Shown here: positions 579 through 28,128 of the stretch, one piece after another
How positions within the stretch are numbered: the stretch's first letter is position 1
Layout of the letters: every line of letters begins with the position of its first letter
From: a virus
DNA length: 64,000 nt
Direction: 5' to 3' (one strand)
Virus record (IMG/VR): IMGVR_UViG_3300040801_002290
Coordinates: 1 to 64,000 of that record
The notes under the pieces: model-generated
What the model was told of the DNA's origin: nothing
Databases searched by the model: none
Seen by the model: only the letters and a program-made list of their open reading frames with translations
Position numbers and translations under genes: made by a program

Positions 579-584
579 GAGTAC

Positions 585-616: not shown

Positions 617-634
617 AGGCTTTCTGTAATACAC

Positions 635-663: not shown

Positions 664-679
664 GTATATTCGTTTCCAA

Positions 680-1171: not shown

Positions 1172-1331
1172 TTTTAATCAACTCCTCAATAACATCAATA
1201 AGACCTTCAAGCGCATGTAATGGGCTACAGTCTAGCCAGGAAAGGTATTTATAATCCTCGGAATTAGTGACGATAGCGACCCACTCTTTATCTTCCGGGC
1301 TATAGAAAACCTTAAACTCAAGACCCCTCAT

Positions 1332-1797: not shown

Positions 1798-2045
1798 TCT
1801 GGAATTCCCTTGTAATCATAGTAAGGAATATCCTCGTACTGATGAACGGTGCTGGTTCCTGCGTAGGTATAGCTTGAGAAACGGACCACCTGAGAACCAA
1901 CGTGAAAACCTTCGTCTGGCTCTTCAAAGGAGATACGCAAATCCCTACCACCTACTACCTGACCATAGTCTTCATCCAACCAGTAGATTTTCTCCGGGTT
2001 TGGAAACTCAGACAGGATTTTTGAAATAAGCATCGTGGTGTTCAT
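1764..2045 (-). CDS. hypothetical protein (probably leaderless)
   Basis: ATG 6 nt downstream of TAGTAT -10 box. Confidence 0.7.
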   Translation of the reverse strand: MNTTMLISKILSEFPNPEKIYWLDEDYGQVVGGRDLRISFEEPDEGFHVGSQVVRFSSYTYAGTSTVHQYEDIPYYDYKGIPEWFYQLLTEEQ

Positions 2046-2051
2046 AAGCAC

Positions 2052-2083
2052 ATACTACAGGAGCAGTTAGTGAGAAGTGTGAG
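2052..2083 (-). promoter_or_regulatory. phage TCTCA-class promoter
   Basis: CTCA-N4-TCTCA-N13-TAGTAT. Confidence 0.75.
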
Positions 2084-2389
2084 TTACTCCTGGTCAACTA
2101 TAGGAGCAACAACGATTCTCTTATCGGGACCAATAAATACTCCCGTCTCACCTAAATCTATGAAAACAGGTAGGGGCTGTTTTATAGCGGCTAAAAGGTC
2201 TTCTTCGCAACCCTTAAGTCCTTCTAGAGAGGCGTGTAAGTTACTCTTAGCCCGGTAATATTCTTTGACTACTTCTGAGTTTCGATATTCCTGCTCAGCT
2301 TTCCAATACTTTTCCTCTACCTCTTCGTGATTCTTATGGTAGATAGCGTAATCTTCTGCCAATCTAGCGAGATTCATCATATACCTCAC
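2084..2389 (-). CDS. hypothetical coiled-coil protein
   Basis: 101 aa ORF, GAGG RBS. Confidence 0.7.
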   Translation of the reverse strand: MRYMMNLARLAEDYAIYHKNHEEVEEKYWKAEQEYRNSEVVKEYYRAKSNLHASLEGLKGCEEDLLAAIKQPLPVFIDLGETGVFIGPDKRIVVAPIVDQE

Positions 2390-2506
2390 ATTCGTGTTCT
2401 ATATACTCCCCGTTAATAAAGGTGAGACACCTTGGTGGAGTAGAGCTAAATCGGGGTTGTTCAAAAAGCCCGTCAATAGTGATTAGAAGTAGTATCAAAA
2501 AGATAA

Positions 2507-2788
2507 TCATAGATAACCAGCTAACTCAGCTTCTCTAACGGCCTTCAAAACTTCTTGAGTACTGGTATAGACTCCCCGCTTCTCCCCGTCTACATAAACA
2601 TCGTAAACATCATCAAACGGGTCGTGACGAGAGCGGTACCTTACTTCAACCCCTAAACGGTGCAAATAGTCCTTCTCTACCTTAGAAACATGCTGCTCGG
2701 CAGAACTAAAAAGAGCTTTTGCTCTTTTATACTCAGAGTACAATTCATCTTTTCTCTCTCTAGCTCTCTTAACGTCTTCCCAAGTCAT
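2507..2788 (-). CDS. hypothetical protein
   Basis: 93 aa ORF. Confidence 0.7.
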   Translation of the reverse strand: MTWEDVKRARERKDELYSEYKRAKALFSSAEQHVSKVEKDYLHRLGVEVRYRSRHDPFDDVYDVYVDGEKRGVYTSTQEVLKAVREAELAGYL

Positions 2789-2964
2789 TTTCAGCCTTTC
2801 TTAAGTCTTCCATGACTTTTCTCCAATCATCAGCAATTGCCTCTTTATCTCTCTCAAACCCACCGTCATAGTACCTAGAGAATTTTCTGGGCCGGGGAAA
2901 AAGAGTTATATAGGACATGCCACGAAGAAAAGACTTTAACCAGTTCATATGCTCTCCTGTTACA

Positions 2965-2996
2965 ACTCTATCATTGATTATTATGAGACAAATGAG
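2965..2996 (-). promoter_or_regulatory. phage TCTCA-class promoter
   Basis: CTCA-N4-TCTCA-N13-TAGAGT. Confidence 0.65.
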
Positions 2997-3042
2997 AGGC
3001 CCCCGGTCAATAGCCGGGGGGTCACTCTATAAAAAGTAGAAC

Positions 3043-4245
3043 CTATTGTTTGTTGGGCAATAACCAGTTAAGCAAAACGCCCGCAATACCAGCTAGACCA
3101 ATGCCAGCTAGAGAGAAGTCACCGATGTTTAGAGCCATGCCACCAACCCCGAACACGAGAATCACGGCTACGATGATTAGATTTCTATTATTCGAAAAGT
3201 CTACCTGAGCTTTAACCAAAGTGCTAATTCCAACTACAATAATTGAGCCGAATAGAACTACGAGAATTCCACCCATAACTGGTACTGGAATCGTTGCCAG
3301 AATAGCTCCCAGCTTGCCTACGAAGGCTAGCACAATAGCCAGCACCGCTGCTACTACCATGATGATAGGACTAAATGCCTTGGTTAATGTAACGGCTCCT
3401 GTGACCTCAGAATACGTGGTGTTTGGTGGCCCGCCAAAAAATGCTGCTAGTACAGTAGCAAGACCGTCGCCTAGAAGGGTGCGATGCAACCCTGGCTTTT
3501 CCAGATAATCCTCGCCAGTCACACCGCGAATTGCGATAATGTCTCCAACATGTTCAATCGCCGGGGCAATCGCCACAGGCACGATAAACAGGATAGCTGC
3601 TAAAGAGAATACGGGGAAAACGAATTCAGGTGTTGCAAACCAAGCAGCCTGAGCTACAGGAGTGAAATCCACCATTCCCAATAAAAGGGCAACAACATAC
3701 CCGGCTGAAATACCTACCATGATTGGGATTAGTTTGAAGATACCCTTTGCTAATAGGGCAGTGGCAATGGTAGCTGCCAAAGAGACTGCGGCTACAAGAA
3801 TAAACGTCCAACTATAGTCCCCTACTGCTGTACCAGTCGCCATGCTGACGGCAGTGGGAGCCAGATAAAGGCCGATAGCCATAATAACGGGACCAGTTAC
3901 AATGGGTGGAAGAATTCTATGAACAGCCTCTACTCCCTTAGATTTTGCTAAGGCCGCTAAAAGAACATAAACCACACCCGCCGCCATCAAGCCTGAAAGC
4001 GTGGCGGGCAAGCCGAATAGTGCTATACCACCAATAATTGCCGGTATGAAAGCAAAAGACGAGGCTAGAAAAACCGGCACTCTAAAACCAGTAATTATGT
4101 GAAAAAGTAAGGTACCAGCGCCAGCAGTGAATAGGGCCACATTTGGGTCTAATCCTGTCAGCAGTGGTACCAAAACTAAAGCGCCAAATGCAACAAACAG
4201 CATCTGAGCGCCTAATACGAAAGTTCTCGGGCTTAAATCATTCAT
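3043..4245 (-). CDS. uraA: uracil/xanthine permease (NCS2/NAT family)
   Basis: QMLFVAFGALVLVP start, LASSFAFI, EHVGD, GDGLAT, PNTTYSE motifs; many TM segments. Confidence 0.93.
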   Translation of the reverse strand: MNDLSPRTFVLGAQMLFVAFGALVLVPLLTGLDPNVALFTAGAGTLLFHIITGFRVPVFLASSFAFIPAIIGGIALFGLPATLSGLMAAGVVYVLLAALAKSKGVEAVHRILPPIVTGPVIMAIGLYLAPTAVSMATGTAVGDYSWTFILVAAVSLAATIATALLAKGIFKLIPIMVGISAGYVVALLLGMVDFTPVAQAAWFATPEFVFPVFSLAAILFIVPVAIAPAIEHVGDIIAIRGVTGEDYLEKPGLHRTLLGDGLATVLAAFFGGPPNTTYSEVTGAVTLTKAFSPIIMVVAAVLAIVLAFVGKLGAILATIPVPVMGGILVVLFGSIIVVGISTLVKAQVDFSNNRNLIIVAVILVFGVGGMALNIGDFSLAGIGLAGIAGVLLNWLLPNKQ

Positions 4246-4297
4246 GTGATTCTCCTTTTACCCAAAGTCTAATCATATCACTAGAACTTTGACACAA

Positions 4298-4498
4298 TCA
4301 AAACGTGGATGCTCTATTGTGTGCTTTCCAATAACCAGCGGCCCACGCCTCGTGCAACTCTGTATTTCCGCGTCCCATAGTCAGATATGGGTTTACGGTT
4401 GGCAACAAACCGCGACGATAGGCATTGGCACCGGCTTCCCAGGCTAGGCCGAATTCCTGAAACCCAGGGGTAGTATTTAGGGGCATAGGCTTACTCAT
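4298..4498 (-). CDS. small Rmf/CrpP-like protein
   Basis: GxxAxxxG...NPY...W..G[YW] pattern. Confidence 0.5.
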   Translation of the reverse strand: MSKPMPLNTTPGFQEFGLAWEAGANAYRRGLLPTVNPYLTMGRGNTELHEAWAAGYWKAHNRASTF

Positions 4499-4838
4499 CG
4501 TAATCCTCTACTAAAACCAAATCAGTGTCATAATCATCAGGAATCCCAGTTTCCCAGTCCCTATAGGCAGTAGTTACAGCCTCGTAAACTTTTCCGACTA
4601 TAAGACCTTCTTCTGGCAAATGAATCGGGGCTTCGATACCATACTCAGCTAGGTCATCGAAAATTGGGTCCCACTCTGGCAGAGGAGTAATCCTTTCAAG
4701 AGTAATACCGGTAACAAAATCAATACCATCCCCAATACCCCACCACCCTTTACACTCAACGGCTCTATATAGGTGACGAGATTTGGGTCTGAGTTCCCTC
4801 TCTGCTTGAAAGATGCTCTCTATGGAAACAAATGACAT
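4491..4838 (-). CDS. hypothetical protein
   Basis: 115 aa ORF, GGAG RBS. Confidence 0.7.
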   Translation of the reverse strand: MSFVSIESIFQAERELRPKSRHLYRAVECKGWWGIGDGIDFVTGITLERITPLPEWDPIFDDLAEYGIEAPIHLPEEGLIVGKVYEAVTTAYRDWETGIPDDYDTDLVLVEDYDE

Positions 4839-4857
4839 GTTATCTCCTTATAGGCAC

Positions 4858-4889
4858 AGTCTACACTAACTAACCATGAGAACAATGAG
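4858..4889 (-). promoter_or_regulatory. phage TCTCA-class promoter
   Basis: CTCA-N4-TCTCA-N13-TAGACT. Confidence 0.72.
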
Positions 4890-4982
4890 TGTATCAAACA
4901 CCGGCAAAAAACCGGCTTTGGACACATAAGTTTGAAAAGTATCAGATTTAGATACTCACACTACGCCTTTGACACTAAAGTT

Positions 4983-5010
4983 AAACCCCGGCTTTTACAC
5001 CGGGGTTATT
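4983..5010 (-). terminator. intrinsic terminator after the Phe-His-Pro tRNA block
   Basis: AACCCCGG/CCGGGGTT hairpin with flanking T-run. Confidence 0.6.
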
Positions 5011-5013
5011 GTT

Positions 5014-5091
5014 TGGTCGGGAATGCTGGATTCGAACCAGCGGCCCCTCGCTTCCAAAGCGAGTACTCTAGCCAGACTGAGCTAATTCCCG
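5014..5091 (-). tRNA. tRNA-Pro(TGG)
   Basis: Loop TTTGGAA, CCA. Confidence 0.93.
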
Positions 5092-5094
5092 TTA

Positions 5095-5170
5095 TGGTCT
5101 GGGGTGTAGGAATCGAACCTACCTATATCCTGGCTCCAAACCAGGTGACACCCCTTGCGTCTGACCCCAG
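5095..5170 (-). tRNA. tRNA-Pro(TGG), divergent second copy
   Basis: Loop TTTGGAG, atypical D arm, CCA. Confidence 0.8.
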
Positions 5171-5171
5171 A

Positions 5172-5247
5172 TGGTCGGAAGGACACGAGTCGAACGTGCG
5201 TCCCCAACGCCCCCAGCGTTGTGCTTTAGCCTCTAAGCTACCTTCCG
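5172..5247 (-). tRNA. tRNA-Pro(GGG)
   Basis: Loop CTGGGGG, CCA. Confidence 0.9.
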
Positions 5248-5250
5248 TAA

Positions 5251-5328
5251 TGGGACCGAGTACGGGATTTGAACCCGTGATTACCAGATTCACAGTCTGG
5301 TGCCTTTGACCACTTGGCTAACTCGGAC
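5251..5328 (-). tRNA. tRNA-His(GTG)
   Basis: Loop CTGTGAA, G-1:C73, CCA. Confidence 0.92.
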
Positions 5329-5331
5329 ATG

Positions 5332-5408
5332 TGGTGGAGCCTAATGGAATCGAACCATTACCTCAAGATTTTCAGTCTTGCGTGCAGCACCTTGCACACC
5401 CAGGCTCC
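5332..5408 (-). tRNA. tRNA-Phe(GAA)
   Basis: Loop CTGAAAA, CCA. Confidence 0.92.
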
Positions 5409-5411
5409 ATA

Positions 5412-5597
5412 TTACTTAACTAAATCTATATACAAATCTCCAACAATGTTTTCAATTGGAATGATTAGAAACCCGTCGGAAAAATGAATTCTGATATAAG
5501 ACGGTTCCCAATCTATCGCAATAGCGTCTTTAAACCCGCTGTCAACTTTAGAACCGTCTGGCATACGCAAAGTGTACTCTGAGCTATAAGAAGCCAT
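5412..5597 (-). CDS. hypothetical protein
   Basis: 61 aa ORF coupled to upstream gene. Confidence 0.65.
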   Translation of the reverse strand: MASYSSEYTLRMPDGSKVDSGFKDAIAIDWEPSYIRIHFSDGFLIIPIENIVGDLYIDLVK

Positions 5598-5878
5598 TAT
5601 TTCCTCATTCCAAATTTACGGCGGCGATTCATTCTATGAAGTTTCTCAAACCCGTCTAGAATCAAAGCCCCAACAAATGCAATTCCTACAACCGCTAAAG
5701 CAAACGCACCGAGGCCGAGAAAAACTCCCACGTAAATAATGAGTGGGGCAAAAAACGAGGCTACAATCCACCACCAAGAGATGTCGATAACTTCAACAAG
5801 CTTAAGCACAATAAGGACGATTGTCAAGACCCCGAAAACGGGGAAAGACGGCAGTTTGATATCAACCTCTCGGCTCAT
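5597..5878 (-). CDS. membrane protein
   Basis: 2-3 hydrophobic segments, ISWWWI motif. Confidence 0.75.
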   Translation of the reverse strand: MSREVDIKLPSFPVFGVLTIVLIVLKLVEVIDISWWWIVASFFAPLIIYVGVFLGLGAFALAVVGIAFVGALILDGFEKLHRMNRRRKFGMRK

Positions 5879-5901
5879 GTGTTTCCCCTTTCACAAGTCT
5901 T

Positions 5902-5932
5902 AGCATAGCACAACTAGTATGAGAGTTATGAG
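5902..5932 (-). promoter_or_regulatory. phage TCTCA-class promoter
   Basis: CTCA-N4-TCTCA-N12-TATGCT with extended TG. Confidence 0.7.
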
Positions 5933-6210
5933 TCGTTGTTTCCCGTAATGGTGAGGTTACTTGTCCAGGTGTACTGACTCGGGGAGCAGGGGCATCTACT
6001 AACGTGTGGAGCATTTACTCCCCCGCATTTAGGACAAACCCATCCGGTGGGTGCGGTAGACGGGTAATATGGAGCGGTTGGGTAATAAGGGTATGGGTAA
6101 TAGGGATTAATCCACCAGCCGTCATAATACCAGTTAGAATTCTGTGTGCCACTAGTTTGACTGTCCCAAGTCTTATAATATTGCTCTCCGGGCTCCAAGT
6201 TTATAAACAT
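5926..6210 (-). CDS. Tyr/Pro-rich protein with zinc ribbon
   Basis: WVCPKCG...CPC. Confidence 0.7.
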   Translation of the reverse strand: MFINLEPGEQYYKTWDSQTSGTQNSNWYYDGWWINPYYPYPYYPTAPYYPSTAPTGWVCPKCGGVNAPHVSRCPCSPSQYTWTSNLTITGNNDS

Positions 6211-6232
6211 GGCTTTCTCCCAACTATAAAAT

Positions 6233-6382
6233 AAAACTCCAGTCCAGGTCGCTCACTTTTACGATACATACTCTTGTCTTTTTGCAACACATATCTCAGG
6301 TTGCGGCAGAGTTGCCTACCAGTTATATACTGGATGCCTCGTACTACGTCTTAGTGACGAATGCCCTCGATGCTGGAGTTTT
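6233..6382 (-). ncRNA. putative structured ncRNA abutting the tRNA-Trp 3' end
   Basis: 10-bp terminal stem 6233-6242/6373-6382 plus internal hairpins. Confidence 0.5.
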
Positions 6383-6456
6383 TGGCACGCCCACTAGGAA
6401 TCGAACCCAGGACTTCGGTTTTGGAGACCGACGTTTTCCCGCTAAACTATAGGCGT
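6383..6456 (-). tRNA. tRNA-Trp(CCA)
   Basis: Loop CTCCAAA, CCA. Confidence 0.93.
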
Positions 6457-6549
6457 ATGCGAAAAAGGCGGCTTCATGTTTCGTAAGCACTTTAAACGCG
6501 GAGGAATAGGTAGCTCTCCCTCACGTACCTTTTTCTTACTGCTACCACT

Positions 6550-6623
6550 TGGAGCGGAATAAGAGAATCGAACTCTTCTAATCGGTTTGGAAGACCGGAG
6601 CATTACCACTATGCTAATTCCGC
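6550..6623 (-). tRNA. tRNA-Gly(TCC)
   Basis: Loop CTTCCAA, CCA. Confidence 0.93.
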
Positions 6624-6634
6624 GTGTATGAGTA

Positions 6635-6663
6635 GTATAGCACTACCCAATTTGGTTGTCAAG
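6635..6663 (-). promoter_or_regulatory. sigma70/sigmaA-type promoter
   Basis: TTGACA-N17-TATACT. Confidence 0.7.
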
Positions 6664-6676
6664 GCTATTTATAATT

Positions 6677-6764
6677 TGGCGGAAGGTACAGGATTTGAAC
6701 CTGTGTGCCTTTTACAGCGCACCGCTTTCCAAGCGGGCCGATTTAACCACTCTCGCAACCTTCC
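6677..6764 (-). tRNA. tRNA-Ser(GGA)
   Basis: Loop TTGGAAA, long variable arm, CCA. Confidence 0.93.
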
Positions 6765-6768
6765 AGGT

Positions 6769-6858
6769 TGGCGGTGGGGGTGGGATTCGAACCCACGGGG
6801 CTATGACACCCACAGTCTTAGCAGGACTGCGCTATAAACCTGACTCTGCCACCCCACC
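6769..6858 (-). tRNA. tRNA-Ser(GCT)
   Basis: Loop CTGCTAA, long variable arm, CCA. Confidence 0.93.
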
Positions 6859-6909
6859 GTACTCTCGTGCATCATCCCTTTAAACGACACGGTTACCTCA
6901 TATGGACAC

Positions 6910-6941
6910 ATGATACAACTACAGCACATGAGAATTATGTG
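6910..6941 (-). promoter_or_regulatory. phage TCTCA-class promoter
   Basis: CACA-N4-TCTCA-N13-TATCAT. Confidence 0.7.
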
Positions 6942-7016
6942 GAAAGGGAGGAGGGATTCGAACCCCCAACATTCGCGTTCAAAGCGCGATGCAACTGCCA
7001 ATTGTGCTACTCCCTC
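6940..7016 (-). tRNA. tRNA-Gln(TTG)
   Basis: Loop CTTTGAA, CCA. Confidence 0.9.
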
Positions 7017-7155
7017 ACAAATCAGTCCATCAAAAATGTCACAAGAAACAAGCCGATGAATAGTAAAAGCAAAAATGCCCACACCGGAATGTAATAAAAC
7101 AGGACTAGAATAAAGAATAGAAAGAATAATAGATTCATAGTCCCGCCTTTGTAGT

Positions 7156-7230
7156 TGGAGCCCTATGTCGGAATCGAACCAACATCAACTGTTTACAAGA
7201 CAGTAGTTTTAGCCATTAAACTAATAGGGC
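7156..7230 (-). tRNA. tRNA-Thr(TGT)
   Basis: Loop CTTGTAA, CCA. Confidence 0.93.
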
Positions 7231-7234
7231 ATTT

Positions 7235-7309
7235 TGGCTCACCCTCTAGGATTCGAACCTAGGACCATACGGTTAACAGCCGTGCGCTCTTCCGCTGAGC
7301 TAAGGGTGA
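7235..7309 (-). tRNA. tRNA-Asn(GTT)
   Basis: Loop CTGTTAA, CCA. Confidence 0.93.
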
Positions 7310-7312
7310 ATA

Positions 7313-7385
7313 TGGAGACCCGTGGCAGAATCGAACTGCCTCTAGTAGTTTTGCAGACTACTTTCTCTCCATGAGAATACGAGTC
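7313..7385 (-). tRNA. tRNA-Cys(GCA)
   Basis: Loop CTGCAAA, U73, CCA. Confidence 0.88.
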
Positions 7386-7587
7386 AGAAGTCCCGAAGAA
7401 CCATTTGAAAGGATTTAGCTACCTGTAGAGGAAGGTACATTTCATCCCCTACGAGTTGATTGTACTCGTTCCTAAGACTCAGAACTACATAATCTGGATT
7501 GTCTGGGTGAGTACGGACACTTAGAGAAAAGTCTCCGTGCCCGTCGTCCCATATAATCTGGTGGTTCTTTACAATGCTCATTTCCAT
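7384..7587 (-). CDS. hypothetical protein
   Basis: 67 aa ORF, AAGGAG RBS. Confidence 0.7.
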   Translation of the reverse strand: MEMSIVKNHQIIWDDGHGDFSLSVRTHPDNPDYVVLSLRNEYNQLVGDEMYLPLQVAKSFQMVLRDF

Positions 7588-7608
7588 AGTCTGCTCCTTG
7601 GTTTTAGT

Positions 7609-7684
7609 TGGTATGAGTGGTAGGAGTCGAACCTACGATGCCGCTGTATCAGAGCGGTGCCTTAAACCACTTGGCTACACTCAT
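7609..7684 (-). tRNA. tRNA-Ile(GAT)
   Basis: Loop CTGATAC, CCA. Confidence 0.9.
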
Positions 7685-7699
7685 GCGCCCACATAAAGG

Positions 7700-7730
7700 A
7701 TTATAGCATACTCTTGGTGAGAAGTGTGAG
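7700..7730 (-). promoter_or_regulatory. phage TCTCA-class promoter
   Basis: CTCA-N4-TCTCA-N12-TATAAT with extended TG. Confidence 0.78.
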
Positions 7731-7731
7731 T

Positions 7732-7941
7732 CTACACACCGTCAAGTTTCTCTAAAGCCCGGAGAATATTAGTCTCTACTTCGTCATCACTCAATTCACC
7801 ATTACCAGCACGGTGAGCATAAGACCAGGAGTCGATTAAGGAAACAATTTCACGAATCCTTTCGTTATTCATAGCTGTCACGCAGTAAGAGATTTTGTGA
7901 AAAACCCTCTCATAAATCCTTAGTTTCTCTTCACAGTTCAT
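7732..7941 (-). CDS. hypothetical protein
   Basis: 69 aa ORF, ATGA overlap with upstream gene. Confidence 0.7.
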   Translation of the reverse strand: MNCEEKLRIYERVFHKISYCVTAMNNERIREIVSLIDSWSYAHRAGNGELSDDEVETNILRALEKLDGV

Positions 7942-8225
7942 GGTAGTTGGAACCTCAAATCGGAATTACCAACCAGCTTAATGGTGACTTTTGAGCCATT
8001 AACATCCTTCTCAAAAAACAACTCTTCTGTAGTAACAGAGTACACATGACCGTGGTCGTGTGCCGAAGTGTACTTTGTTTTTCCTATAAGAGTAATCTCT
8101 TCGGTCTCTCCGTTGGGCCACATGATGGTTAGTTTGTCTCCGCTAAAAACCCTTTTGTCTCCCAGATAGTACTCAAGGTGTTCCCAATTATTACGGACTT
8201 TGATGGGTTCAAACATTTTATCCAA
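7938..8225 (-). CDS. hypothetical protein
   Basis: 95 aa ORF. Confidence 0.7.
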   Translation of the reverse strand: MDKMFEPIKVRNNWEHLEYYLGDKRVFSGDKLTIMWPNGETEEITLIGKTKYTSAHDHGHVYSVTTEELFFEKDVNGSKVTIKLVGNSDLRFQLP

Positions 8226-8370
8226 CTTTCTTTATCTACCGCCGAAAAGTCTCCTAAAAAACTCAATGATTCTTTCCCAGAATGTCATTATTTTTTCCCC
8301 GGAAAACCGGTATCTATCTGAGAACCTAATGGTTTTATCTCCCCACTTCATGTTTTACCTCCGGGATTTT

Positions 8371-8446
8371 TGGCAGTCCCTCCTCGGTTCGAACGAGGAC
8401 TCTTTCGGTTCAGAGCCGAATGTTTTTCCTATTAAACTAAGGGACT
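8371..8446 (-). tRNA. tRNA-Gln(CTG)
   Basis: Loop CTCTGAA, CCA. Confidence 0.9.
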
Positions 8447-8458
8447 ACGATGAGGATG

Positions 8459-8650
8459 TTATGCAGAATGACTCTGTTCAAGCAGGGCGGTCAGAGCTAG
8501 GTCCACTGAGTCAAGAATTGAATTAGGTGACTTATCACTCATTGCTCCCGACACGTTAGCCATAGTTCTCAAAAAAGCTTCACTTACAACAACCCCGTTT
8601 TCTGTAACTTCTCCAGTACTACTTAATTCGGCAATAACAAAGTGTCTCAT
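8459..8650 (-). CDS. hypothetical protein
   Basis: 63 aa ORF, AAGGAG RBS. Confidence 0.65.
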   Translation of the reverse strand: MRHFVIAELSSTGEVTENGVVVSEAFLRTMANVSGAMSDKSPNSILDSVDLALTALLEQSHSA

Positions 8651-8665
8651 GCTCTCCTTTCATAC

Positions 8666-8697
8666 ACAATAAAACGACCTTAGATGAGAATTATGTG
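8666..8697 (-). promoter_or_regulatory. phage TCTCA-class promoter
   Basis: CACA-N4-TCTCA-N13-TATTGT. Confidence 0.65.
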
Positions 8698-8781
8698 GTG
8701 CCTAAGGTGGGATTCGAACCCACACGCCCTTTCGGGCACTGCCCCCTCAAGACAGCGTGTCTACCATTCCACCACTTAGGC
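8696..8781 (-). tRNA. tRNA-Leu(GAG)
   Basis: Loop TTGAGGG, long variable arm, CCA. Confidence 0.92.
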
Positions 8782-8786
8782 TTATA

Positions 8787-9470
8787 TTAGAAGCCGAACA
8801 AAACTCCGAAGTTTATGTGAATCCCGTTAAAGGTTGCTCTGGCCGTGCCTTCGGCTATCGGAGTAAAACTCTGAGAAACTACATACTTGCCTTCAAGGGT
8901 TAAGGCAAAGCCCTCAGTTATGTAATACCTAGCCTGAGAAGAAAGCTGGGCTGCGGGTCCAGCAATATAGTATTTGCTTTCCGGAGAAAGGTGAGTTCTG
9001 GTACCGTTTTGAAGCCCGCGAATTTCTGTAGCTGGATTAGGAATAGAAAGCCCGAATCCTGCCCTAGAAACAATGTGAAATACGTCGGTAATTTCGTAAA
9101 CATGCCCTACATTAAATAGAGCAATGTTGTGACCGTCTGAAAGCTCAAAGTGCTGAACAACATTCTCCGGGTCATTACCACTGACGTAATAAGACTTATC
9201 GTGAATCCACTCAATCTCATAAACTATGTTATCGACCCTATTACCCAGTCTAACAGTGTAGTAATTCTCTGTCAACCCTGCCAGACTAGAGAAATTAGAC
9301 CACGGTCGTGTTTCATACCTGGCGTCTGTAACAGAGTAATCCTCAAAACCGGATTGAGAAATCACTAGAGTATTAGGAGCTTTGAAGCTGGTGCCAGTAG
9401 ATACCTCCAAGCTCCAAGCCAAAGAATAAGACACAAAAAGTGAAATTAATAGAACCACTAGTTTTCTCAT
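8787..9470 (-). CDS. putative outer-membrane beta-barrel protein
   Basis: True start MRKLVV after AGGAG; signal peptide; alternating aromatic strands; C-terminal INFGVLFGF. Confidence 0.65.
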   Translation of the reverse strand: MRKLVVLLISLFVSYSLAWSLEVSTGTSFKAPNTLVISQSGFEDYSVTDARYETRPWSNFSSLAGLTENYYTVRLGNRVDNIVYEIEWIHDKSYYVSGNDPENVVQHFELSDGHNIALFNVGHVYEITDVFHIVSRAGFGLSIPNPATEIRGLQNGTRTHLSPESKYYIAGPAAQLSSQARYYITEGFALTLEGKYVVSQSFTPIAEGTARATFNGIHINFGVLFGF

Positions 9471-9483
9471 ATATTCTCCTAAT

Positions 9484-9567
9484 TGGTGCCCAGGGTGGGA
9501 TTCGAACCCACAAGCCTTTCGGCACTGCATTTTGAGTGCAGCGTGTATACCGTTCCACCACCTGGGC
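9484..9567 (-). tRNA. tRNA-Leu(CAA)
   Basis: Loop CTCAAAA, long variable arm, CCA. Confidence 0.93.
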
Positions 9568-10271
9568 TAGTGATTAAGAATAAAGTACTCTGTCAATTCA
9601 GACTTCAATAAGTCAGGAAGGTGAAGCTTATCCTTGTTGTCATTATAGCACTCTTCCAGCTTGGGCACAAAGGACTCTATTTCCTCTTCTACCTGGGGCT
9701 TTACGAAGACCCCGCTTTTAACATTCCTTAAATGTACCTTCAACTCCGGGGTTAAATAAAAGTATTCGCCGGTTTGAAGAATATTGTACAAAGTGTACAT
9801 TCCACGAAGAAGATGTGCTGCGTACTTAGGGTCATAACCCATACGGTTTACCAACTCAGTACGCTCAGGGCTACGAGGCTTATGTCCCACAAGCCTGTCC
9901 TTTTGACTCCTAACATAGCCCATATAGGAACCGGCTACGTTTTGGGTAATCACATAAGGACGAACAGCATCAATCATTCCTTTTACAAAAGACTCTTCTC
10001 TAACCGGGGAATGAAAAACTAGGTCAATAGCATTGAAGTTACCCTTTACCAGCATCACAGCCAGCTTAGCAGCAGTGTGAATAGAGTAGTCGTCTTCCTC
10101 ATGCTGGGAAACGCTCAATAGTCTGTCCTGAAATGGATTAAGGTAGGAAATCCGGTTGTGAAAAACCCCCGTGAAATCCGTGTCGGATTCGGGGGTGTCC
10201 ATACCGTACATTTTACTTCCCGTTACCCAAACCTGTGCGTTGTACTCAATGAAGAATTCTGGAATTTCCAT
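9567..10271 (-). CDS. DNA polymerase beta-superfamily nucleotidyltransferase (RlaP/YcgL-like)
   Basis: GSKMYG...SDTDF motif; YDPKYAAHLLR. Confidence 0.85.
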   Translation of the reverse strand: MEIPEFFIEYNAQVWVTGSKMYGMDTPESDTDFTGVFHNRISYLNPFQDRLLSVSQHEEDDYSIHTAAKLAVMLVKGNFNAIDLVFHSPVREESFVKGMIDAVRPYVITQNVAGSYMGYVRSQKDRLVGHKPRSPERTELVNRMGYDPKYAAHLLRGMYTLYNILQTGEYFYLTPELKVHLRNVKSGVFVKPQVEEEIESFVPKLEECYNDNKDKLHLPDLLKSELTEYFILNH

Positions 10272-10321
10272 CTCAATCTCTTTTCTTTATAAGTTATTCA
10301 GAGTAATGTTTGAATGAGTTC

Positions 10322-10430
10322 TTATTGACGGCTGACTCTGCCATGTTGGTCTAGACAGGAATTTCCTGCCCCAGGATTCGAACCTGGACTATAGCCGTTT
10401 GACCGAAGTATCTCACTCACTGGCTGCTGA
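10322..10430 (-). ncRNA. yrlA: YrlA-type Y RNA (permuted tRNA-like domain)
   Basis: Order is T arm (GGTTCGAATCC), loop-closed acceptor-like hairpin, D-arm-like TAGACCAACATGGCAGAGTC, closed by ACGGC/GCCGT; ro60 is in the same genome. Confidence 0.75.
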
Positions 10431-10436
10431 AAACTT

Positions 10437-10512
10437 TGGTACCGGTGGTGGGATTCGAACCCACACTTTGGCGATTTTAAGTCGCATGACTCTACCATTG
10501 GTCTACACCGGC
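10437..10512 (-). tRNA. tRNA-Leu(TAA) with short variable loop
   Basis: Loop CTTAAAA, 76 nt, 5-nt variable region, CCA. Confidence 0.8.
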
Positions 10513-10550
10513 ACGCGCTTACTTAGATAGTATGGAATACTATGTAAAGT

Positions 10551-10635
10551 TGGTGCCGACGACAGGACTTGAACCTGCAACCCCAGAGGGGACTGCGTTC
10601 TAAGCGCAGCGCGTATACCATTCCGCCACGTCGGC
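10551..10635 (-). tRNA. tRNA-Leu(TAG)
   Basis: Loop CTTAGAA, long variable arm, CCA. Confidence 0.93.
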
Positions 10636-10639
10636 ATAA

Positions 10640-10920
10640 ATTCGGCTGCCCGTCTGACTAGGACGAAGTGTCGATAAAGCCGCTAAGCAATATCCGAGTC
10701 CAAGGAAATTTCACCAGACCGTAGGTTTAAGCTTCCCTAGAGGCTTTCGGCCTTGAGCCCACCGAAGGCTCAGATAGATAGAGCAGTTTATTCGTCATGC
10801 TCAGGACTAGCCCCAAAACGGGCCTTTTGTATAATGCGGGTTTTGCTGCGCGGCGGGTTACCCGGAAACCGCCAATATGGATACGGAGTCTTTTACTAAA
10901 CCTGGCGCTGCCGTTCCAGG
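10640..10920 (-). ncRNA. putative ~280-nt structured ncRNA
   Basis: No credible ORF; own promoter; many hairpins and long-range GCCCGT/ACGGGC and GGCTAG/CTAGTC pairing. Confidence 0.5.
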
Positions 10921-10926
10921 AACTAC

Positions 10927-10958
10927 ACTATACTGTGTCTCTCTATGAGAGTTATGAG
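10927..10958 (-). promoter_or_regulatory. phage TCTCA-class promoter
   Basis: CTCA-N4-TCTCA-N13-TATAGT. Confidence 0.75.
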
Positions 10959-11131
10959 TTGGTGATTCGCCTCAGGTTTGCACTGTTGAGAGGAACAACA
11001 TCTACTCTGCGCCTACGGCTAGTGCGATAGCTATCGGCAATAAGGTTTGCCTGAGGACGACTATCCGCAATAAGGGTGTTAGCCCTGCCGTCACGATACG
11101 ATTCCCAAACTACTACGAGATGCTTATTCAT
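10952..11131 (-). CDS. small basic hypothetical protein (59 aa, absent from ORF track)
   Basis: MNKHLVVVWESYRDGRAN...; AAAGGAAG RBS; internal repeat ANTLIADS/ANLIADS. Confidence 0.65.
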   Translation of the reverse strand: MNKHLVVVWESYRDGRANTLIADSRPQANLIADSYRTSRRRRVDVVPLNSANLRRITNS

Positions 11132-11236
11132 ATTTCTTCCTTTCTAAGGGGAGGGTTTTTGCGCGGAACCCTTAAAACCGCCACTATCCCCGCAACCCGA
11201 ACCTGTCCTCGGTCAAGCGTCTCTCCGCTTTGTCAA

Positions 11237-11311
11237 TGGTGGACAGCCGGGGAATCGAACCCCGAATTCCTGCTTGCAAAACAGGTGTGTTCCCGTTAGC
11301 ACTAGCCGCCC
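11237..11311 (-). tRNA. tRNA-Ala(TGC)
   Basis: Loop TTTGCAA, G3:U70, CCA. Confidence 0.93.
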
Positions 11312-11322
11312 GAGCTAGAGTA

Positions 11323-11354
11323 AGTATAGCTTACTCGTTTGTGAGAATGATTAG
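11323..11354 (-). promoter_or_regulatory. phage TCTCA-class promoter
   Basis: CTAA-N4-TCTCA-N13-TATACT. Confidence 0.72.
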
Positions 11355-11371
11355 AACTTGTAGAACTTATG

Positions 11372-11461
11372 GAAGTCTGGGTATTGACTAGCCGCGAAAT
11401 TCTTCATCCAAGCATCTACCCTGTAACGTTTAGGTAGTGAGTCAAGAATGACAGCCACTTC
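11372..11461 (-). ncRNA. putative small structured RNA carrying a variant Y-RNA-like motif
   Basis: GAAGT/ACTTC, GGCTGT/GCGGCT, ATTCTT/AAGAAT and CTACC/GGTAG helices. Confidence 0.45.
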
Positions 11462-11477
11462 TGTGATATTAAACAAC

Positions 11478-11645
11478 TTATTCATCATAATTCCTCATTA
11501 ACTCCTTTAGAGCTTCGTTTGGTTCTGGTGGATTCTCTAACATTTCCATGAAGTATTTCCAGTCTACTTCTGAAACTTCCATGATTACAGGGATTAGATT
11601 CTTGAAGGCTTCGATTTCCTCTTCGGTTAGTTTACTCTTTTCCAT
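11478..11645 (-). CDS. stand-alone DUF1778 (TacA/AtaR) antitoxin C-terminal-like protein
   Basis: VSEVDWKYFMEMLENPPEPNEALKELM matches the DUF1778 C-terminal pattern; start MEKS after GGAAAAG. Confidence 0.7.
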   Translation of the reverse strand: MEKSKLTEEEIEAFKNLIPVIMEVSEVDWKYFMEMLENPPEPNEALKELMRNYDE

Positions 11646-11877
11646 AGTCAAGGTACTCAAAGTACACACTCAGTGCGTAAAGTAAACTTTCTCCGTTGTC
11701 GCCATCGCCCCCAACTTCCCAACCCAGAGAGTCTCCCATTTCCTGGTAATCATAATCCATAAGAAACTCCATAAGCTTTACTGCTTTGGTGTGATGCTCC
11801 GCGCCGTCGTCATACCGTCTCTCGGCACTGAATTGACGTTCTGGAAGTGTACGCTTTACGTCATTAAACAAGGTCAT
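11632..11877 (-). CDS. hypothetical protein
   Basis: 81 aa ORF, AAAGGGG RBS. Confidence 0.75.
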   Translation of the reverse strand: MTLFNDVKRTLPERQFSAERRYDDGAEHHTKAVKLMEFLMDYDYQEMGDSLGWEVGGDGDNGESLLYALSVYFEYLDYGKE

Positions 11878-11897
11878 GTTGACCCCTTTCAGTTAAT

Positions 11898-11983
11898 TGG
11901 CGGAAGGTGAGGGAATCGAACCCCCAAGGCTTTTACACCCAGCCGCTTTCAAGGCGGTGTCCTCGTCCATTCGGGCACCTTCC
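11898..11983 (-). tRNA. tRNA-Ser(TGA)
   Basis: Loop CTTGAAA, long variable arm, CCA. Confidence 0.93.
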
Positions 11984-11989
11984 GTGCTT

Positions 11990-12058
11990 TGCCTGGTCCC
12001 GAATCGAACGGGACACTTTCCCCAAAATGGGTTGTGCTTCATCATTTACACCACAGGC
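11990..12058 (-). pseudogene. tRNA-like element with collapsed anticodon loop and no CCA
   Basis: T loop TTCGATT in a 6-bp stem, D stem GTGT/GCAC, 5-bp acceptor GCCTG/CAGGC. Confidence 0.6.
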
Positions 12059-12065
12059 TAATTGC

Positions 12066-12140
12066 TGGTGACCCCGGTAGGAATCGAACCTACATCTAGA
12101 CTTTAGGAGAGTCCTATTCTGTCCATTGAACTACGAGGTC
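12066..12140 (-). tRNA. tRNA-Arg(CCT)
   Basis: Loop CTCCTAA, CCA. Confidence 0.93.
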
Positions 12141-12369
12141 ATGTACGGTTTATGGGTGACCGAAAACCCCGCCAAGCCTATGACCCTCGTTGCGGTGAGG
12201 GGATGCTTTATGGTGTGGCATCTAAACCCTATGATTAACCCTATCAGTGGGACAGGGGCTCTTATGGTTAGCCCTGCGGAACCTGTGCAACCCTAGGGTT
12301 TGGGCAAACCCCGATGCCCTAATTCAGTGCCGTTGCCTCACCGAATCCGTTTTTGAAGGACGGTACCTT
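12141..12369 (-). ncRNA. putative ~230-nt structured ncRNA with (T)AGGGT repeats
   Basis: Fills the spacer between two tRNAs; at least six hairpins; no ORF. Confidence 0.5.
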
Positions 12370-12445
12370 TGGTCCCCCCGGCAGGAATCGAACCCGCTTT
12401 GAACCGGTTAAAAGCCGGGAGCCTATCCATTCGGCCTCAGGGGGA
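12370..12445 (-). tRNA. tRNA-Lys(TTT)
   Basis: Loop CTTTTAA, CCA. Confidence 0.92.
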
Positions 12446-12447
12446 TG

Positions 12448-12524
12448 TGGAGGCCCGTGAAGGATTCGAACCCTCGACCAGCCGGGTAGAAACCGGCGGC
12501 TCTAGTCCACTGAGCTAACGGGCC
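12448..12524 (-). tRNA. tRNA-Arg(TCT)
   Basis: Loop TTTCTAC, CCA. Confidence 0.9.
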
Positions 12525-12541
12525 TTGCGCTTACAGGGGTA

Positions 12542-12573
12542 AGCATACTACTTGGTAACATGAGAAGAATGAG
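12542..12573 (-). promoter_or_regulatory. phage TCTCA-class promoter
   Basis: CTCA-N4-TCTCA-N13-TATGCT. Confidence 0.72.
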
Positions 12574-13197
12574 TTACTCTAACGGTATTGAATTTCTGTG
12601 AATTCTATTAATAATAATTCCAAAGTCCCAAAAATTTGTGTCATGGCTGGGAGTGATATAAAATTCCCCACCATTAGTAACAAAAGTCTGCATTGTAAAC
12701 GCAGGAACGGTTAAACAAAAGGTGTGTTCAATGCCTTGACCCCTTACCAGTGCTGACGTGTTTTGCCAAACAATATTACTACCAGAAACTCCTGGGTCAC
12801 CAATATCTAACTCGGAGAGAATATAAGCTCCCTGTACCGCTGCGGAATCACACCTAAACTGAAATCTTATTATATAAAAATCCCCAACATTACTTGGCAT
12901 AAATTTGTTTGTTGAGGGGTTCCACCAACACCCAGACGCATCCGGAGGCAAGTACTCTGTTATATTACTAAGTAGGCTATTGTTAGTAACCTTGGTTCTC
13001 GTACCCGCAGTTACTGGTAGTTTAGATAAAGATGTATACTGATTGTCAAAGTGATTACACCAGCCGGTTCCTGTTACTCCGACAATGCTCGCTACTAGGT
13101 TTCGCATATCAGAAGCGGAAATTTCACCGGTAGTGTTATCAGAAAAATCAGAGTATAGCTGTTGTATCGTACGTTTGGTGGCTGGCATTAGTATCAC
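12574..13197 (-). CDS. hypothetical beta-rich protein, possibly virion-associated
   Basis: 207 aa ORF; DNTTGEISASDMRNLV N-terminus. Confidence 0.7.
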   Translation of the reverse strand: MILMPATKRTIQQLYSDFSDNTTGEISASDMRNLVASIVGVTGTGWCNHFDNQYTSLSKLPVTAGTRTKVTNNSLLSNITEYLPPDASGCWWNPSTNKFMPSNVGDFYIIRFQFRCDSAAVQGAYILSELDIGDPGVSGSNIVWQNTSALVRGQGIEHTFCLTVPAFTMQTFVTNGGEFYITPSHDTNFWDFGIIINRIHRNSIPLE

Positions 13198-13391
13198 CCC
13201 ACGTCAAAGGAATCATCAAAAGCAGAGCTAAAAGCGGGACCTTCCTTTTCTACGCAGCATTCCTCTATCATCTCTGCCATAGCTAAAATGGCGTGAAATA
13301 AAGTCATGTCCGAGGGTAGGCCGGGGTTGGATATCGCTCTTAGCGAAGCTTCATTGTCTCTAATAATCTTTTTCAGAGACTTGATGTCCAT
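13194..13391 (-). CDS. hypothetical protein (possibly leaderless)
   Basis: TAGTCT-N6-ATG; C-terminal FSSAFDDSFD. Confidence 0.65.
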   Translation of the reverse strand: MDIKSLKKIIRDNEASLRAISNPGLPSDMTLFHAILAMAEMIEECCVEKEGPAFSSAFDDSFDVG

Positions 13392-13422
13392 AACTAGAGA
13401 CTACTACTAAAACCTTAATAAG

Positions 13423-13728
13423 TCAAGATTCCTTTATGGTGTAATCAGAGGGATTTTTCCTTCTACTAACATAGCCTTTAGCCTCTTGAAATACATCATA
13501 AACCTTAACGACTCTTCCATGCTTATTAATTACCAGATAAGTCTCCTCATCCAGAGGAAGGGAAACGACATAATACCCATCGACTAAAGACTCTTGCCTA
13601 TTCCTGGACTCAGTGTACGTAGCTGCTAATTCAGAGTCGGAAAAAACCTTTACTGGAATAGCAGCAACATCCTCTATATACCAGTCGTCCTCGTAGTGGT
13701 ACCCCTCCTTCATCACAATGTATAACAT
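13423..13728 (-). CDS. hypothetical protein
   Basis: 101 aa ORF. Confidence 0.7.
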   Translation of the reverse strand: MLYIVMKEGYHYEDDWYIEDVAAIPVKVFSDSELAATYTESRNRQESLVDGYYVVSLPLDEETYLVINKHGRVVKVYDVFQEAKGYVSRRKNPSDYTIKES

Positions 13729-13745
13729 GTTTACTCACTTTCTAT

Positions 13746-13821
13746 TGGCTGACCCCCAGGGAATCGAACCCTGCTAGACCGCGTTAACAGCGCGGCGCAG
13801 TCACCAGATTGCGAGAGGTCA
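13746..13821 (-). tRNA. tRNA-Asn(GTT), second copy
   Basis: Loop CTGTTAA, CCA. Confidence 0.88.
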
Positions 13822-13854
13822 ATACGCCTAGTTTTTAAGGTTCTAGGAAACCTG

Positions 13855-13931
13855 TGGTGCCCCCTCCAGGATTTGAACCTGGGATTTCCCGCTTAAGAGG
13901 CGGTTGCCTTAGACCGCTTGGCTAAGGAGGC
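13855..13931 (-). tRNA. tRNA-Lys(CTT)
   Basis: Loop CTCTTAA, CCA. Confidence 0.92.
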
Positions 13932-13934
13932 ATG

Positions 13935-14009
13935 TGGCGGTCCATAGGAGAATCGAACTCCTGTCCCTCGGCTGACAACCGAGCGTCTTAACCACTAAAC
14001 GAATGGACC
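13935..14009 (-). tRNA. tRNA-Asp(GTC)
   Basis: Loop TTGTCAG, CCA. Confidence 0.92.
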
Positions 14010-14027
14010 GTGCCGCTTACAGAAAAC

Positions 14028-14059
14028 ATACTACACCGTCTCTATATGAGAAGTGTGTG
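14028..14059 (-). promoter_or_regulatory. phage TCTCA-class promoter
   Basis: CACA-N4-TCTCA-N13-TAGTAT. Confidence 0.72.
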
Positions 14060-14132
14060 GAGCCCCCGAGGAGAATCGAACTCCTATTATGTCCTTACCA
14101 AGGACACGTAATAGCCTTTATACTACAGGGGC
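14058..14132 (-). tRNA. tRNA-Thr(GGT)
   Basis: Loop TTGGTAA, CCA. Confidence 0.92.
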
Positions 14133-14133
14133 A

Positions 14134-14210
14134 TGGAGCGCCAGGAAGGATTCGAACCCTCGATAACCGCGTTCGAAGCGCGGTGCCTTAGTCCACTAGA
14201 CGACTGGCGC
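14134..14210 (-). tRNA. tRNA-Arg(TCG)
   Basis: Loop CTTCGAA, CCA. Confidence 0.92.
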
Positions 14211-20037: not shown

Positions 20038-20417
20038 TGGAGGCTATGGGAATCGAACCCATGTCCAGAATATCTTAAAAGTTAGCTTCTACGTGTGTAG
20101 TTTGTCTTTGTATCAACAGAGTCGGAGAACAAACAAACCTAGCCTGTGAGTTTGATAGTTTATCCTCCGGTTTACCATCAAACAATCTCAACCGGATTCC
20201 CACGCTAGTCGAAATTTAGGTTACGTGGTTAGCCTAAATTCGGCCTCACTAGCTTACGCAGCGAGGGCTTGTGGGTTGTAGCTAGCGCCTAGCATGAAGC
20301 CAGGTAGCATTTCTACGTTGTCGTCAATTAAGACTTTTAAGGCTTTTTAGAGAGGCCAGCCTTTTCCTCTACACGCAACTAATTTCTCGTATACCCTGTC
20401 GAAACCTGGTAGCCCCC
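20038..20417 (-). ncRNA. ssrA: tmRNA
   Basis: 5' GGGGGCT...TTCGAC; 3' T arm plus acceptor with G3:U70; tag frame 20254-20325 ending ALAA-stop; upstream TTGACA-N17-TAGTAT. Confidence 0.93.
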
Positions 20418-27072: not shown

Positions 27073-27397
27073 TGGTTTAGGCAAGCTGTACGCGGGATTC
27101 TGTATTATCTTGTCATCTATCTTGGCTAGCCATTACAGTTTCGCTCTTTGCGGGAATTACTCCCTTGCTGACGGGTAAGGATTGCCTAGCCGTGGGTTAT
27201 TAGTCCCACGCTGGGGTGCTTTTATCACCCCGCTTTCACCTACCGCTAACGCGGTCACTATTCGCTGTTGCTCTTGCTCGCGGATTACTCCGGGCGGGTG
27301 TTACCCGCTACCCTTTTGCCAAAAATGGGACACATGTCTCAAGTTTGGGTCAGTCCCGACGTTCCTCACCGTAGCGCGACAAGTCACTTACCTAAAA
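27073..27397 (-). ncRNA. rnpB: RNase P RNA (bacterial type A-like)
   Basis: P1 TTTAGGTAAGT/GCTTGCCTAAA; P4 GAGGAACGTCGGGA/AGAATCCCGCGTA with compensatory pairing; AGAGCAACAG (L11/12), GGTGAAAG, GGCAATCC...GCAAG and AGATAGATGA blocks in canonical order. Confidence 0.9.
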
Positions 27398-27542
27398 TTA
27401 CAGTATCGTACATCAGAAGAAAAATACCAGACGAGATTAATGTTGCTCCGATGTAACTAGAAATGATGCCAAAAGGCAGTAAGGGCGGAATTAAAAAACT
27501 GGCGGCTATCAATAAGACGCCAATAAGTCTACGTAGTTCCAT
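27384..27542 (-). CDS. small membrane protein
   Basis: Start MELRR after GGAGG; two TM segments; stop overlaps the rnpB 5' end. Confidence 0.6.
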   Translation of the reverse strand: MELRRLIGVLLIAASFLIPPLLPFGIISSYIGATLISSGIFLLMYDTVILGK

Positions 27543-27603
27543 ATTGTATACCTCCCAGCCCAAGTATGGTAGGGAGCCTCCAACATGACCATCATATAGC
27601 ATA

Positions 27604-28128
27604 TCAGAAGGGAGTGTCAACTACTCTATCGTAGCCGAATTCTTCTGCTTTTTCTTCACACAGAGTCTTTAACCATCCACCCTTACCTTTTGCACGAAGT
27701 CTTCCAGGTGTTCCTGTAAACTCACACGTCTGGTAGGACTCATCTTCTGCCTTTGAGACTTCTTTAGAAAAGTTTCTCCACTTCGTAGACTCCCATTCGC
27801 CCTCCGGTGGGGTGTAATAAAACCTAAGCCCACCAAACTTCTCTTTAACCTGGTCAACCTTACCACCATTGTCAAGAACAAAATCAATTAGCGGCTTAAC
27901 TATACGGTCCCAACCAGAGTTACACTCAAAGTACACACCCCGATAACCAAACTGTTCTAAAAGCCCGTCAATTTGTTCCATGGTAACCTCTTTAGGTTCC
28001 ATAACATTCACACCCTTTCTAGCTAAGTCCCAAGCATTTTCCAAAATAAGGTTGGTTAACTCATTTTCAATACTTTCGGAAAGATATTCTCTTATTCTGA
28101 TAAGCTCTTCTTCTAGTTTCTTTTCCAT
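27604..28128 (-). CDS. conserved phage hypothetical protein
   Basis: GW...QVKEKFGGLRFY...TCE.TG..G...GW..TLC. Confidence 0.8.
   Translation of the reverse strand: MEKKLEEELIRIREYLSESIENELTNLILENAWDLARKGVNVMEPKEVTMEQIDGLLEQFGYRGVYFECNSGWDRIVKPLIDFVLDNGGKVDQVKEKFGGLRFYYTPPEGEWESTKWRNFSKEVSKAEDESYQTCEFTGTPGRLRAKGKGGWLKTLCEEKAEEFGYDRVVDTPF

Follow-up and report, generated by a model that had tools for sequence, protein, structure and literature searches.

A predicted class A RNase P RNA gene with a compensated P4 helix in a metagenomic myophage

RNase P RNA is usually seen as a universal cellular housekeeping ribozyme, and the tRNA cluster of phage T4 is processed wholly by the RNase P of its host. 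An element of about 325 nt in a viral record, which a first reading made from the letters (the sequence-only reading) had taken for an RNase P RNA gene, raises the question of whether a phage can carry the catalytic RNA of this enzyme itself and, if so, for what use. The stretch of DNA analysed here (the window) comprises 64,000 nt from the start of an IMG/VR virus record, which is 194,021 bp long and 97% complete by CheckV.

Identity and genomic setting of the RNA gene

In a covariance-model scan of the whole window, the model of bacterial class A RNase P RNA (RF00010, gathering score 100) matched the minus strand from 27395 to 27073 with 126 bits (E 3.5e-38), and the alignment of the window RNA spanned model positions 1-367. 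The same match was recovered in a whole-genome search and was the sole RNase P match of the window in the Rfam scan. The class A-like gene (27073..27395, minus strand; 323 nt; MFE z-score -3.67) lies where the sequence-only reading had located it at 27073-27397, with the correction that the proposed end was 2 nt too long; the covariance-model search which that reading had suggested as a check gave, as described, a significant match above the cut-off. The class B model (RF00011) did not fit, P13 and P14 being present and RF00010 being retained by Rfam clan competition. A hairpin in J5/7 was considered as a class B P5.1, the position of which it occupies, yet it is confined to this phage and is probably not P5.1. 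Common to the window RNA and class A (E. coli M1 RNA, rnpB) are P1, P2, the P4 pseudoknot with its bulged U, P5, P7-P12 and P13/P14, and the joining regions ACAG, GUGAAA, GCAA, AGAU and ACAGAA are also kept in canonical order; unlike class A genes, it is phage-encoded and has no rnpA partner gene. Judged by sequence and predicted fold, the element is a near-full-size variant of class A RNase P RNA carried by a phage.

The record encodes a tail sheath, a major head protein, a prohead protease, head-decoration and other virion proteins, together with rIIA, rIIB, a ribonucleotide reductase and a DnaB-type helicase, and from this gene content it is a genuine myophage. The Thermus phages phiYS40, TMA and YS40_Isch, with about 51% identity in the major head protein, are the closest cultured relatives, and this kinship may point to a host within the Deinococcota. 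The neighbours of the RNA gene, all on the same strand, encode an SNF2 helicase, an RNA ligase, a metallophosphoesterase, a LAGLIDADG endonuclease, RtcB (29065-30339), a collagen-repeat protein and a TROVE/Ro60 protein. Phage genes are thus present on both flanks, near rtcB, as had been claimed, and the base composition is even across the window, the RNA region included. The description of the element as intergenic does not hold strictly: P1 shares its first 12 nt with the end of a hydrophobic ORF of 52 aa (27384..27542, minus strand) with a GGGAGG ribosome-binding site, and the stop codon of this ORF falls within P1. A promoter-like site, TTGACA-18-TATGAT (27591..27620, minus strand; 11 of 12 matches, by consensus match only), is found about 195 nt upstream of the RNA, which is therefore probably excised from a longer transcript.

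Several other features of this region were recorded. Hydrophobic ORFs of 70 aa (26847-27059) and 52 aa (27384-27542) bracket the RNA, and neither adjoins the RNA in the sister phage G001 described below. The rtcB gene is followed by a free-standing LAGLIDADG homing endonuclease gene (window 28173-30339); in G001, insertions about 1 kb long, which could be inteins or introns, divide the RtcB frame into two or three parts (L049 8500-12200). The TROVE (Ro60) protein has 515 aa (32696-34243) and lies 5 kb from the RNase P RNA. The collagen-triple-helix-repeat protein of 303 aa (30877-31788) is part of the RNA-repair region, and the gene of its homologue in G001 (L049 13727-14488) is directly upstream of the G001 RNase P RNA.

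Two sister phages were obtained by a head-protein search across metagenomes, namely G001 (202 kb, capsid 78% identical) and G002 (190 kb, capsid 70% identical). G001, which comes from an independent metagenome, carries an RF00010 RNA of 298 nt (173 bits) within the same helicase/RtcB/phosphoesterase module, the gene order of which differs from that of the window. Similarity between the DNA of the two phages in this region was restricted to RtcB and the RNA (78% over 236 nt for the RNA), and the flanks could not be aligned. These results bear on the possibility, named in the sequence-only reading as one that would overturn it, that host chromosomal DNA was misassembled into the phage contig or binned together with it. 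In favour of this explanation, the record is a metagenomic assembly. Against it, the RNA has phage genes on the same strand on both sides and lies in DNA of uniform composition, its reduced architecture is unlike that of the full-size bacterial genes sampled, and complete phage genomes with terminal repeats carry RNAs of this kind. Above all, host contamination or a chimeric contig is very unlikely, indeed close to negligible, because the orthologue in the same module of G001 belongs to an independent assembly.

The P4 helix and other departures from class A

The two strands of the catalytic P4 helix were found at the positions given by the sequence-only reading. The 5' strand with the bulged U, GAGGAACGUCGGGA (27354..27367, minus strand), pairs with the 3' strand, AGAAUCCCGCGUA (27089..27101, minus strand), all eight P4 pairs are standard, and the flanking motifs GAGGAA and ACAGAA are present. 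Three pairs depart from the canonical helix (E. coli numbering): 67:359 is C-G in place of A-U, 71:356 is G-C in place of C-G, and 74:353 is A-U in place of G-C. Both sides of each pair are changed with respect to the canonical helix as well as to G001, the nearest relative of the window RNA, which has a canonical P4; U69 remains bulged. The claim of three changes, each compensated and with the bulged U retained, is borne out.

The three changes are of different rarity in a comparison of 20 phage RNAs and 14 bacterial rnpB genes. The A-U pair at 74:353 is ordinary variation, frequent among the 14 bacterial genes, whereas the flip to G-C at 71:356 was shared by many of the 20 phage RNAs and by none of the 14 bacterial genes. 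The C-G pair at 67:359 is rare (4 of 35 phage, metagenome and bacterial RNAs), in a set whose bacterial members are uninformative on position 67, having been chosen by a pattern that fixes A there. The exact triple variant recurs in two differently built RNAs, L030 and L170. In L030, a viral contig of 14.9 kb, the RNA scores 174 bits, its P3 and L15 are longer, and P13/P14 are missing. In L170, a metagenome contig (SDBV01012596.1), the RNA measures 256 nt, its S-domain is reduced, and it is closely flanked by tRNAs within an array of about 40. A scan of IMG/VR with a 15-mer of the P4 variant gave 40 matches, of which one, L030, was an RNase P RNA. Those in L018 and L039, of which one is a contig of 368 kb, were rejected as chance matches within a coding region. 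Based on its recurrence, the triple P4 state is viable as well as recurrent in predicted RNAs, and ancestry, exchange and convergence are all possible sources of it. As to position 67, in the cryo-EM structures of the E. coli enzyme the ligands of the catalytic metal are the phosphates of A67 and G68 together with O4 of U69 (PMC9433436). A pair swap at 67 may be tolerable provided that P4 stays paired and its U bulged, because the contact with the metal at this position is made via the phosphate and not the base.

As side observations, the array of L170 (5762-10803) has about 40 tRNA genes within 5 kb, CCA is encoded in only 4 of 37 of these tRNAs, and the RNase P RNA abuts tRNAs on both sides with gaps of 0-1 nt. 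In three further IMG/VR contigs (L144, L146 and L147) P4 has another compensated form, GUCCCCG/CGGGGC.

Outside P4, the statement that every RNase P RNA landmark is present was correct in part. It stands for P1, P2, P4, P5 and P7-P14, whereas P6, P16, P17 and the GGU of L15 are absent, P3 is reduced to 3 bp, and P18 retains 4 of 8 pairs. The P3 expected of class A is thus present in reduced form (27367..27376, minus strand), with three pairs (C-G, G-U, C-G) and a UACG tetraloop, and its middle pair covaries across the phage RNAs, being U-A, C-G, G-U or A-U. The mini-P3 was considered as a phage-specific trait; this was rejected, as bacteria have it too, in high-scoring chromosomal rnpB copies from Eremiobacterota, Acidimicrobiia, Rhodospirillales and, among others, some CPR bacteria and Saccharibacteria. 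Some rnpB copies of Eremiobacterota may also be without GGU in L15 according to a simple pattern check (L152-L169, bacterial contigs).

Further differences from class A concern J5/7, P15 and P18. The J5/7 insertion, a 35-nt hairpin CCAAA...UUUGG (27314..27348, minus strand; local fold -8.7 kcal/mol), is found in this phage only and is missing from G001 and from every other RNA aligned. It caused the covariance model to misplace P7, the true strands of which are GGGUA/UACCC. The specificity domain (27173..27313, minus strand), with P7, P8, P9, P10/11, P12, P13 and P14, was intact in the helix comparison with G001 and by RNAalifold; P13 and P14, which are specific to class A, each have two compensatory pairs relative to G001. 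P15 is cut to a plain hairpin of 4 bp and 13 nt with the loop GUAAU (27152..27164, minus strand), in which one pair is compensatory relative to G001. The 43 model positions of L15, P16 and P17 correspond to 4 nt in the window RNA, and also in G001, so that there is no GGU for pairing with the RCCA of tRNA and no P6. By covariance-model alignment and pairing check, P18 (27125..27144, minus strand) is degenerate, with a GUAA loop, whereas in G001 it is a perfect 6-bp stem with a non-GNRA loop.

Structural selection and distribution among phages

The reduced parts of the RNA could be read as signs of decay, i.e., of a host rnpB captured by chance and now without function. The score only moderately over the cut-off (126 vs 100), the loss of several peripheral helices and the absence of the gene from G002 and the Thermus phages are all consistent with this. 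The comparison with G001 speaks against it. When class A helices were placed by hand on the window and G001 RNAs (74 pairs in 13 helices), 49 pairs were identical, 2 had one-sided changes, 23 had double compensatory changes and none was broken in either RNA, the core helices P1, P2, P5 and P7-P12 included. Unguided, RNAalifold recovered P1, P3, P4, P7, P8, P9, P12, P13, P14 and P15 from the same two sequences with 19 compensated pairs. From these patterns the phage RNA is under strong structural purifying selection, as the sequence-only reading had argued from P4. Moreover, the RNA is conserved in the midst of flanks that are not, and the sampled bacterial mini-P3 rnpB RNAs are at most 56% identical to it, so that none of the sampled bacteria is a recent donor. 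A decaying relic is highly improbable, because 23 compensatory changes with none of 74 pairs broken in effect exclude decay.

The RNA gene is not general in the relatives of this phage. Even at E<=10, RF00010 had no match in G002 or in two Thermus phages, YS40_Isch and TMA, and the P4 motif pair was also not found in G002, which has 28 tRNAs and yet is without an RNase P RNA. Two S-domain 17-mers of the window RNA matched G001 alone. By this distribution, the RNase P RNA gene is accessory and dispensable in the phage lineage.

A survey of viral catalogues for rnpB, as suggested by the sequence-only reading, did reveal further cases. IMG/VR was scanned for the mini-P3/P4 motif and the matches were checked with RF00010, which matched 17 of the 42 motif-bearing records and exceeded the gathering score in 15. 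Among the matching records are two complete genomes (181 kb and 134 kb), both with direct terminal repeats. At 14 of the 16 loci checked the RNA lies inside co-oriented tRNA arrays, some with about 30 tRNAs in 3.3 kb. For example, L144, L146 and L147 (7-42 kb) have 28-30 tRNA genes in 3.3 kb, mostly with spacers of 1-3 nt and all with CCA, and the RNase P RNA of about 310 nt is in the middle of the array. Blastn searches of 50,697 GenBank phage records, for which the queries were the window RNA, its G001 counterpart and a third phage RNA of more canonical form, gave no phage match; what they did match was one Salmonella contig under a wrong label and two contigs named 'Acinetobacter phage MD-2021a'. 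The window RNA and the other IMG/VR phage RNase P RNAs share the mini-P3/P4 core, the lack of an RnpA gene and their occurrence in tRNA-rich phages. However, most of the others lie within tRNA arrays, are without P13/P14 and keep an L15 that bears GGU, whereas in the window and G001 it is the S-domain that is full and L15 that is missing, and the RNA belongs to an RNA-repair module (in the window, 13 kb from the tRNA array).

Substrates, protein partner and proposed function

The presumed substrates are 31 co-oriented tRNA genes (223..14210, minus strand; ARAGORN and Rfam), all of which encode the 3' CCA, as do 27 of 29 in G001. Spacers are tight, as had been noted, with 10 neighbouring pairs separated by 1-4 nt. 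Since CCA is encoded and such spacers measure 1-4 nt, 5' cleavage would be the main cut that separates the polycistronic precursors. At N(-2)N(-1), directly before the tRNA, 12 of the 31 genes have AU, for which the background is 6% (p about 2e-7), and U(-1) is present in 17 of 31. Bacterial RNase P has its optimum with an AU leader (PMC9433436), and the phage tRNAs look tuned for this enzyme. A tmRNA gene (20038..20417, minus strand; RF00023 149 bits, ARAGORN) is the second presumed substrate, and no tmRNA was found by ARAGORN in G001 and G002. The tag of the window tmRNA has 23 residues and ends in ALAA. A CCA-adding enzyme with a PolyA_pol head and an HD domain is encoded at 137840-139573 of the genome, despite CCA being encoded in 31 of 31 tRNAs, which suggests that the enzyme serves the repair of tRNA ends and not their synthesis. 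The phage thus has a kit for tRNA supply, repair and rescue, comprising tRNAs, tmRNA, RtcB, two RNA ligases, Ro60 and the CCA-adding enzyme. Polycistronic tRNA precursors needing RNase P are common to T4 and this phage, but the latter brings its own RNA subunit.

No RnpA (PF00825) was found at E<=1 in the whole 194-kb record, which extends the earlier remark on its absence from the window, nor in 19 other rnpB-bearing viral records; the same searches detected RF00010 and PF00825 in Thermus and Deinococcus genomes as controls. Because none of these 20 viral records has an rnpA, the phage RNA probably borrows the RnpA of the host. A linked cofactor was sought by all-against-all blastp of the ORFs flanking 17 phage RNase P RNAs, and shared families were found only among close relatives.

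Based on these results, the window RNA is likely to be the product of a functional phage-borne rnpB and to serve as catalytic subunit in an RNase P of bacterial type (class A). Its transcription, shared with its neighbours, would start from the promoter-like site that lies about 195 nt upstream, the RNA would then be released from the transcript, and nucleases would have to process both of its ends. The RNA would assemble with host RnpA, the phage having none, and this enzyme would remove the 5' leaders from the pre-tRNAs of the phage, whose 31 genes are tightly packed into polycistronic arrays, and from its pre-tmRNA. In this way the capacity for tRNA maturation could be raised or secured during infection, and RNase P RNA would be one part of the kit for tRNA supply, repair and rescue. 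Some results count against a functional enzyme. The GGU loop of L15 is missing although 31 of 31 tRNAs encode CCA, which the functional reading leaves unexplained, and in E. coli the loss of the contact between L15 and RCCA promotes miscleavage (PMC9433436). The degenerate P18, the absence of the gene from G002, YS40_Isch and TMA, the overlap with the ORF and the need for processing at both ends also weigh on this side.

The same losses could fit an RNA that is a decoy or regulator, binding host RnpA or pre-tRNAs and so diverting or throttling tRNA processing of the host without efficient catalysis. The CCA-binding loop of L15 and P16/P17 are lost and P18 is weakened, the phage has no RnpA and would compete for the host protein, and the RNase P-like RNA of camelpox virus, which is inactive, has been discussed as a possible decoy (PMC3001073). 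However, compensatory selection has preserved the catalytic core (P4 with the bulged U, J5/15 and J18/2) as well as the S-domain that measures tRNA, complete from P7 to P14. The S-domain would be needless for a decoy of a protein that binds the C-domain, and in other phages the RNA is found within tRNA arrays. A decoy is unlikely on balance.

A tentative and rather improbable idea is that the phage ribozyme is more than a spare copy, namely a re-engineered RNase P which recognises packed polycistronic tRNA and tmRNA precursors by different rules, perhaps without the host protein. Different rules of recognition are possible because the CCA-docking loop has been dropped despite the tRNAs ending in CCA, and because the swapped P4 recurs in unrelated phage RNAs. 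In packed precursors the CCA of the upstream tRNA lies in the leader of the downstream tRNA. If this were true, the re-engineered RNase P would give the phage a self-sufficient production line for tRNAs, even with host RNase P limiting or disabled.

No description of a phage-encoded RNase P RNA was found in the literature searched, most subscription journals being outside the search, in agreement with the sequence-only reading, which named none; the sources without one include a history and review of RNase P (PMC11143913), the P finder paper (PMC7191817) and a survey of huge phages (PMC7162821). The sole viral RNase P-like RNA in the literature searched is the inactive camelpox virus candidate (PMC3001073). 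Both it and the phage RNA are virus-encoded and bear some resemblance to RNase P RNA, but the camelpox RNA has partial structural similarity and no cleavage of pre-tRNA, whereas the phage RNA passes the curated threshold with a full core. The nearest phage precedent is that of the theta (HDV-like) ribozymes (PMC10879173), which are likewise phage-encoded ribozymes tied to the maturation of phage tRNAs. Theta ribozymes are small, self-cleave in cis and act on the 3' ends of tRNAs, whereas the phage RNase P RNA is large, is predicted to act in trans and would act on 5' ends. The study of theta ribozymes assigns 5' processing to RNase P and reports no phage copy of it (PMC10879173).

The RNAs described here raise the question of whether phages need an enzyme of their own for dense tRNA arrays, or independence from a host enzyme that is limiting or attacked. 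Naturally trimmed variants such as these, with a mini-P3, no L15, P16 and P17, and a swapped P4, would show what the ribozyme can do without in vivo. The translation components of large phages already include tRNAs, tmRNA, the CCA-adding enzyme and RNA ligases, and with a phage gene for the RNase P ribozyme an enzyme for the maturation of tRNA 5' ends would join them.
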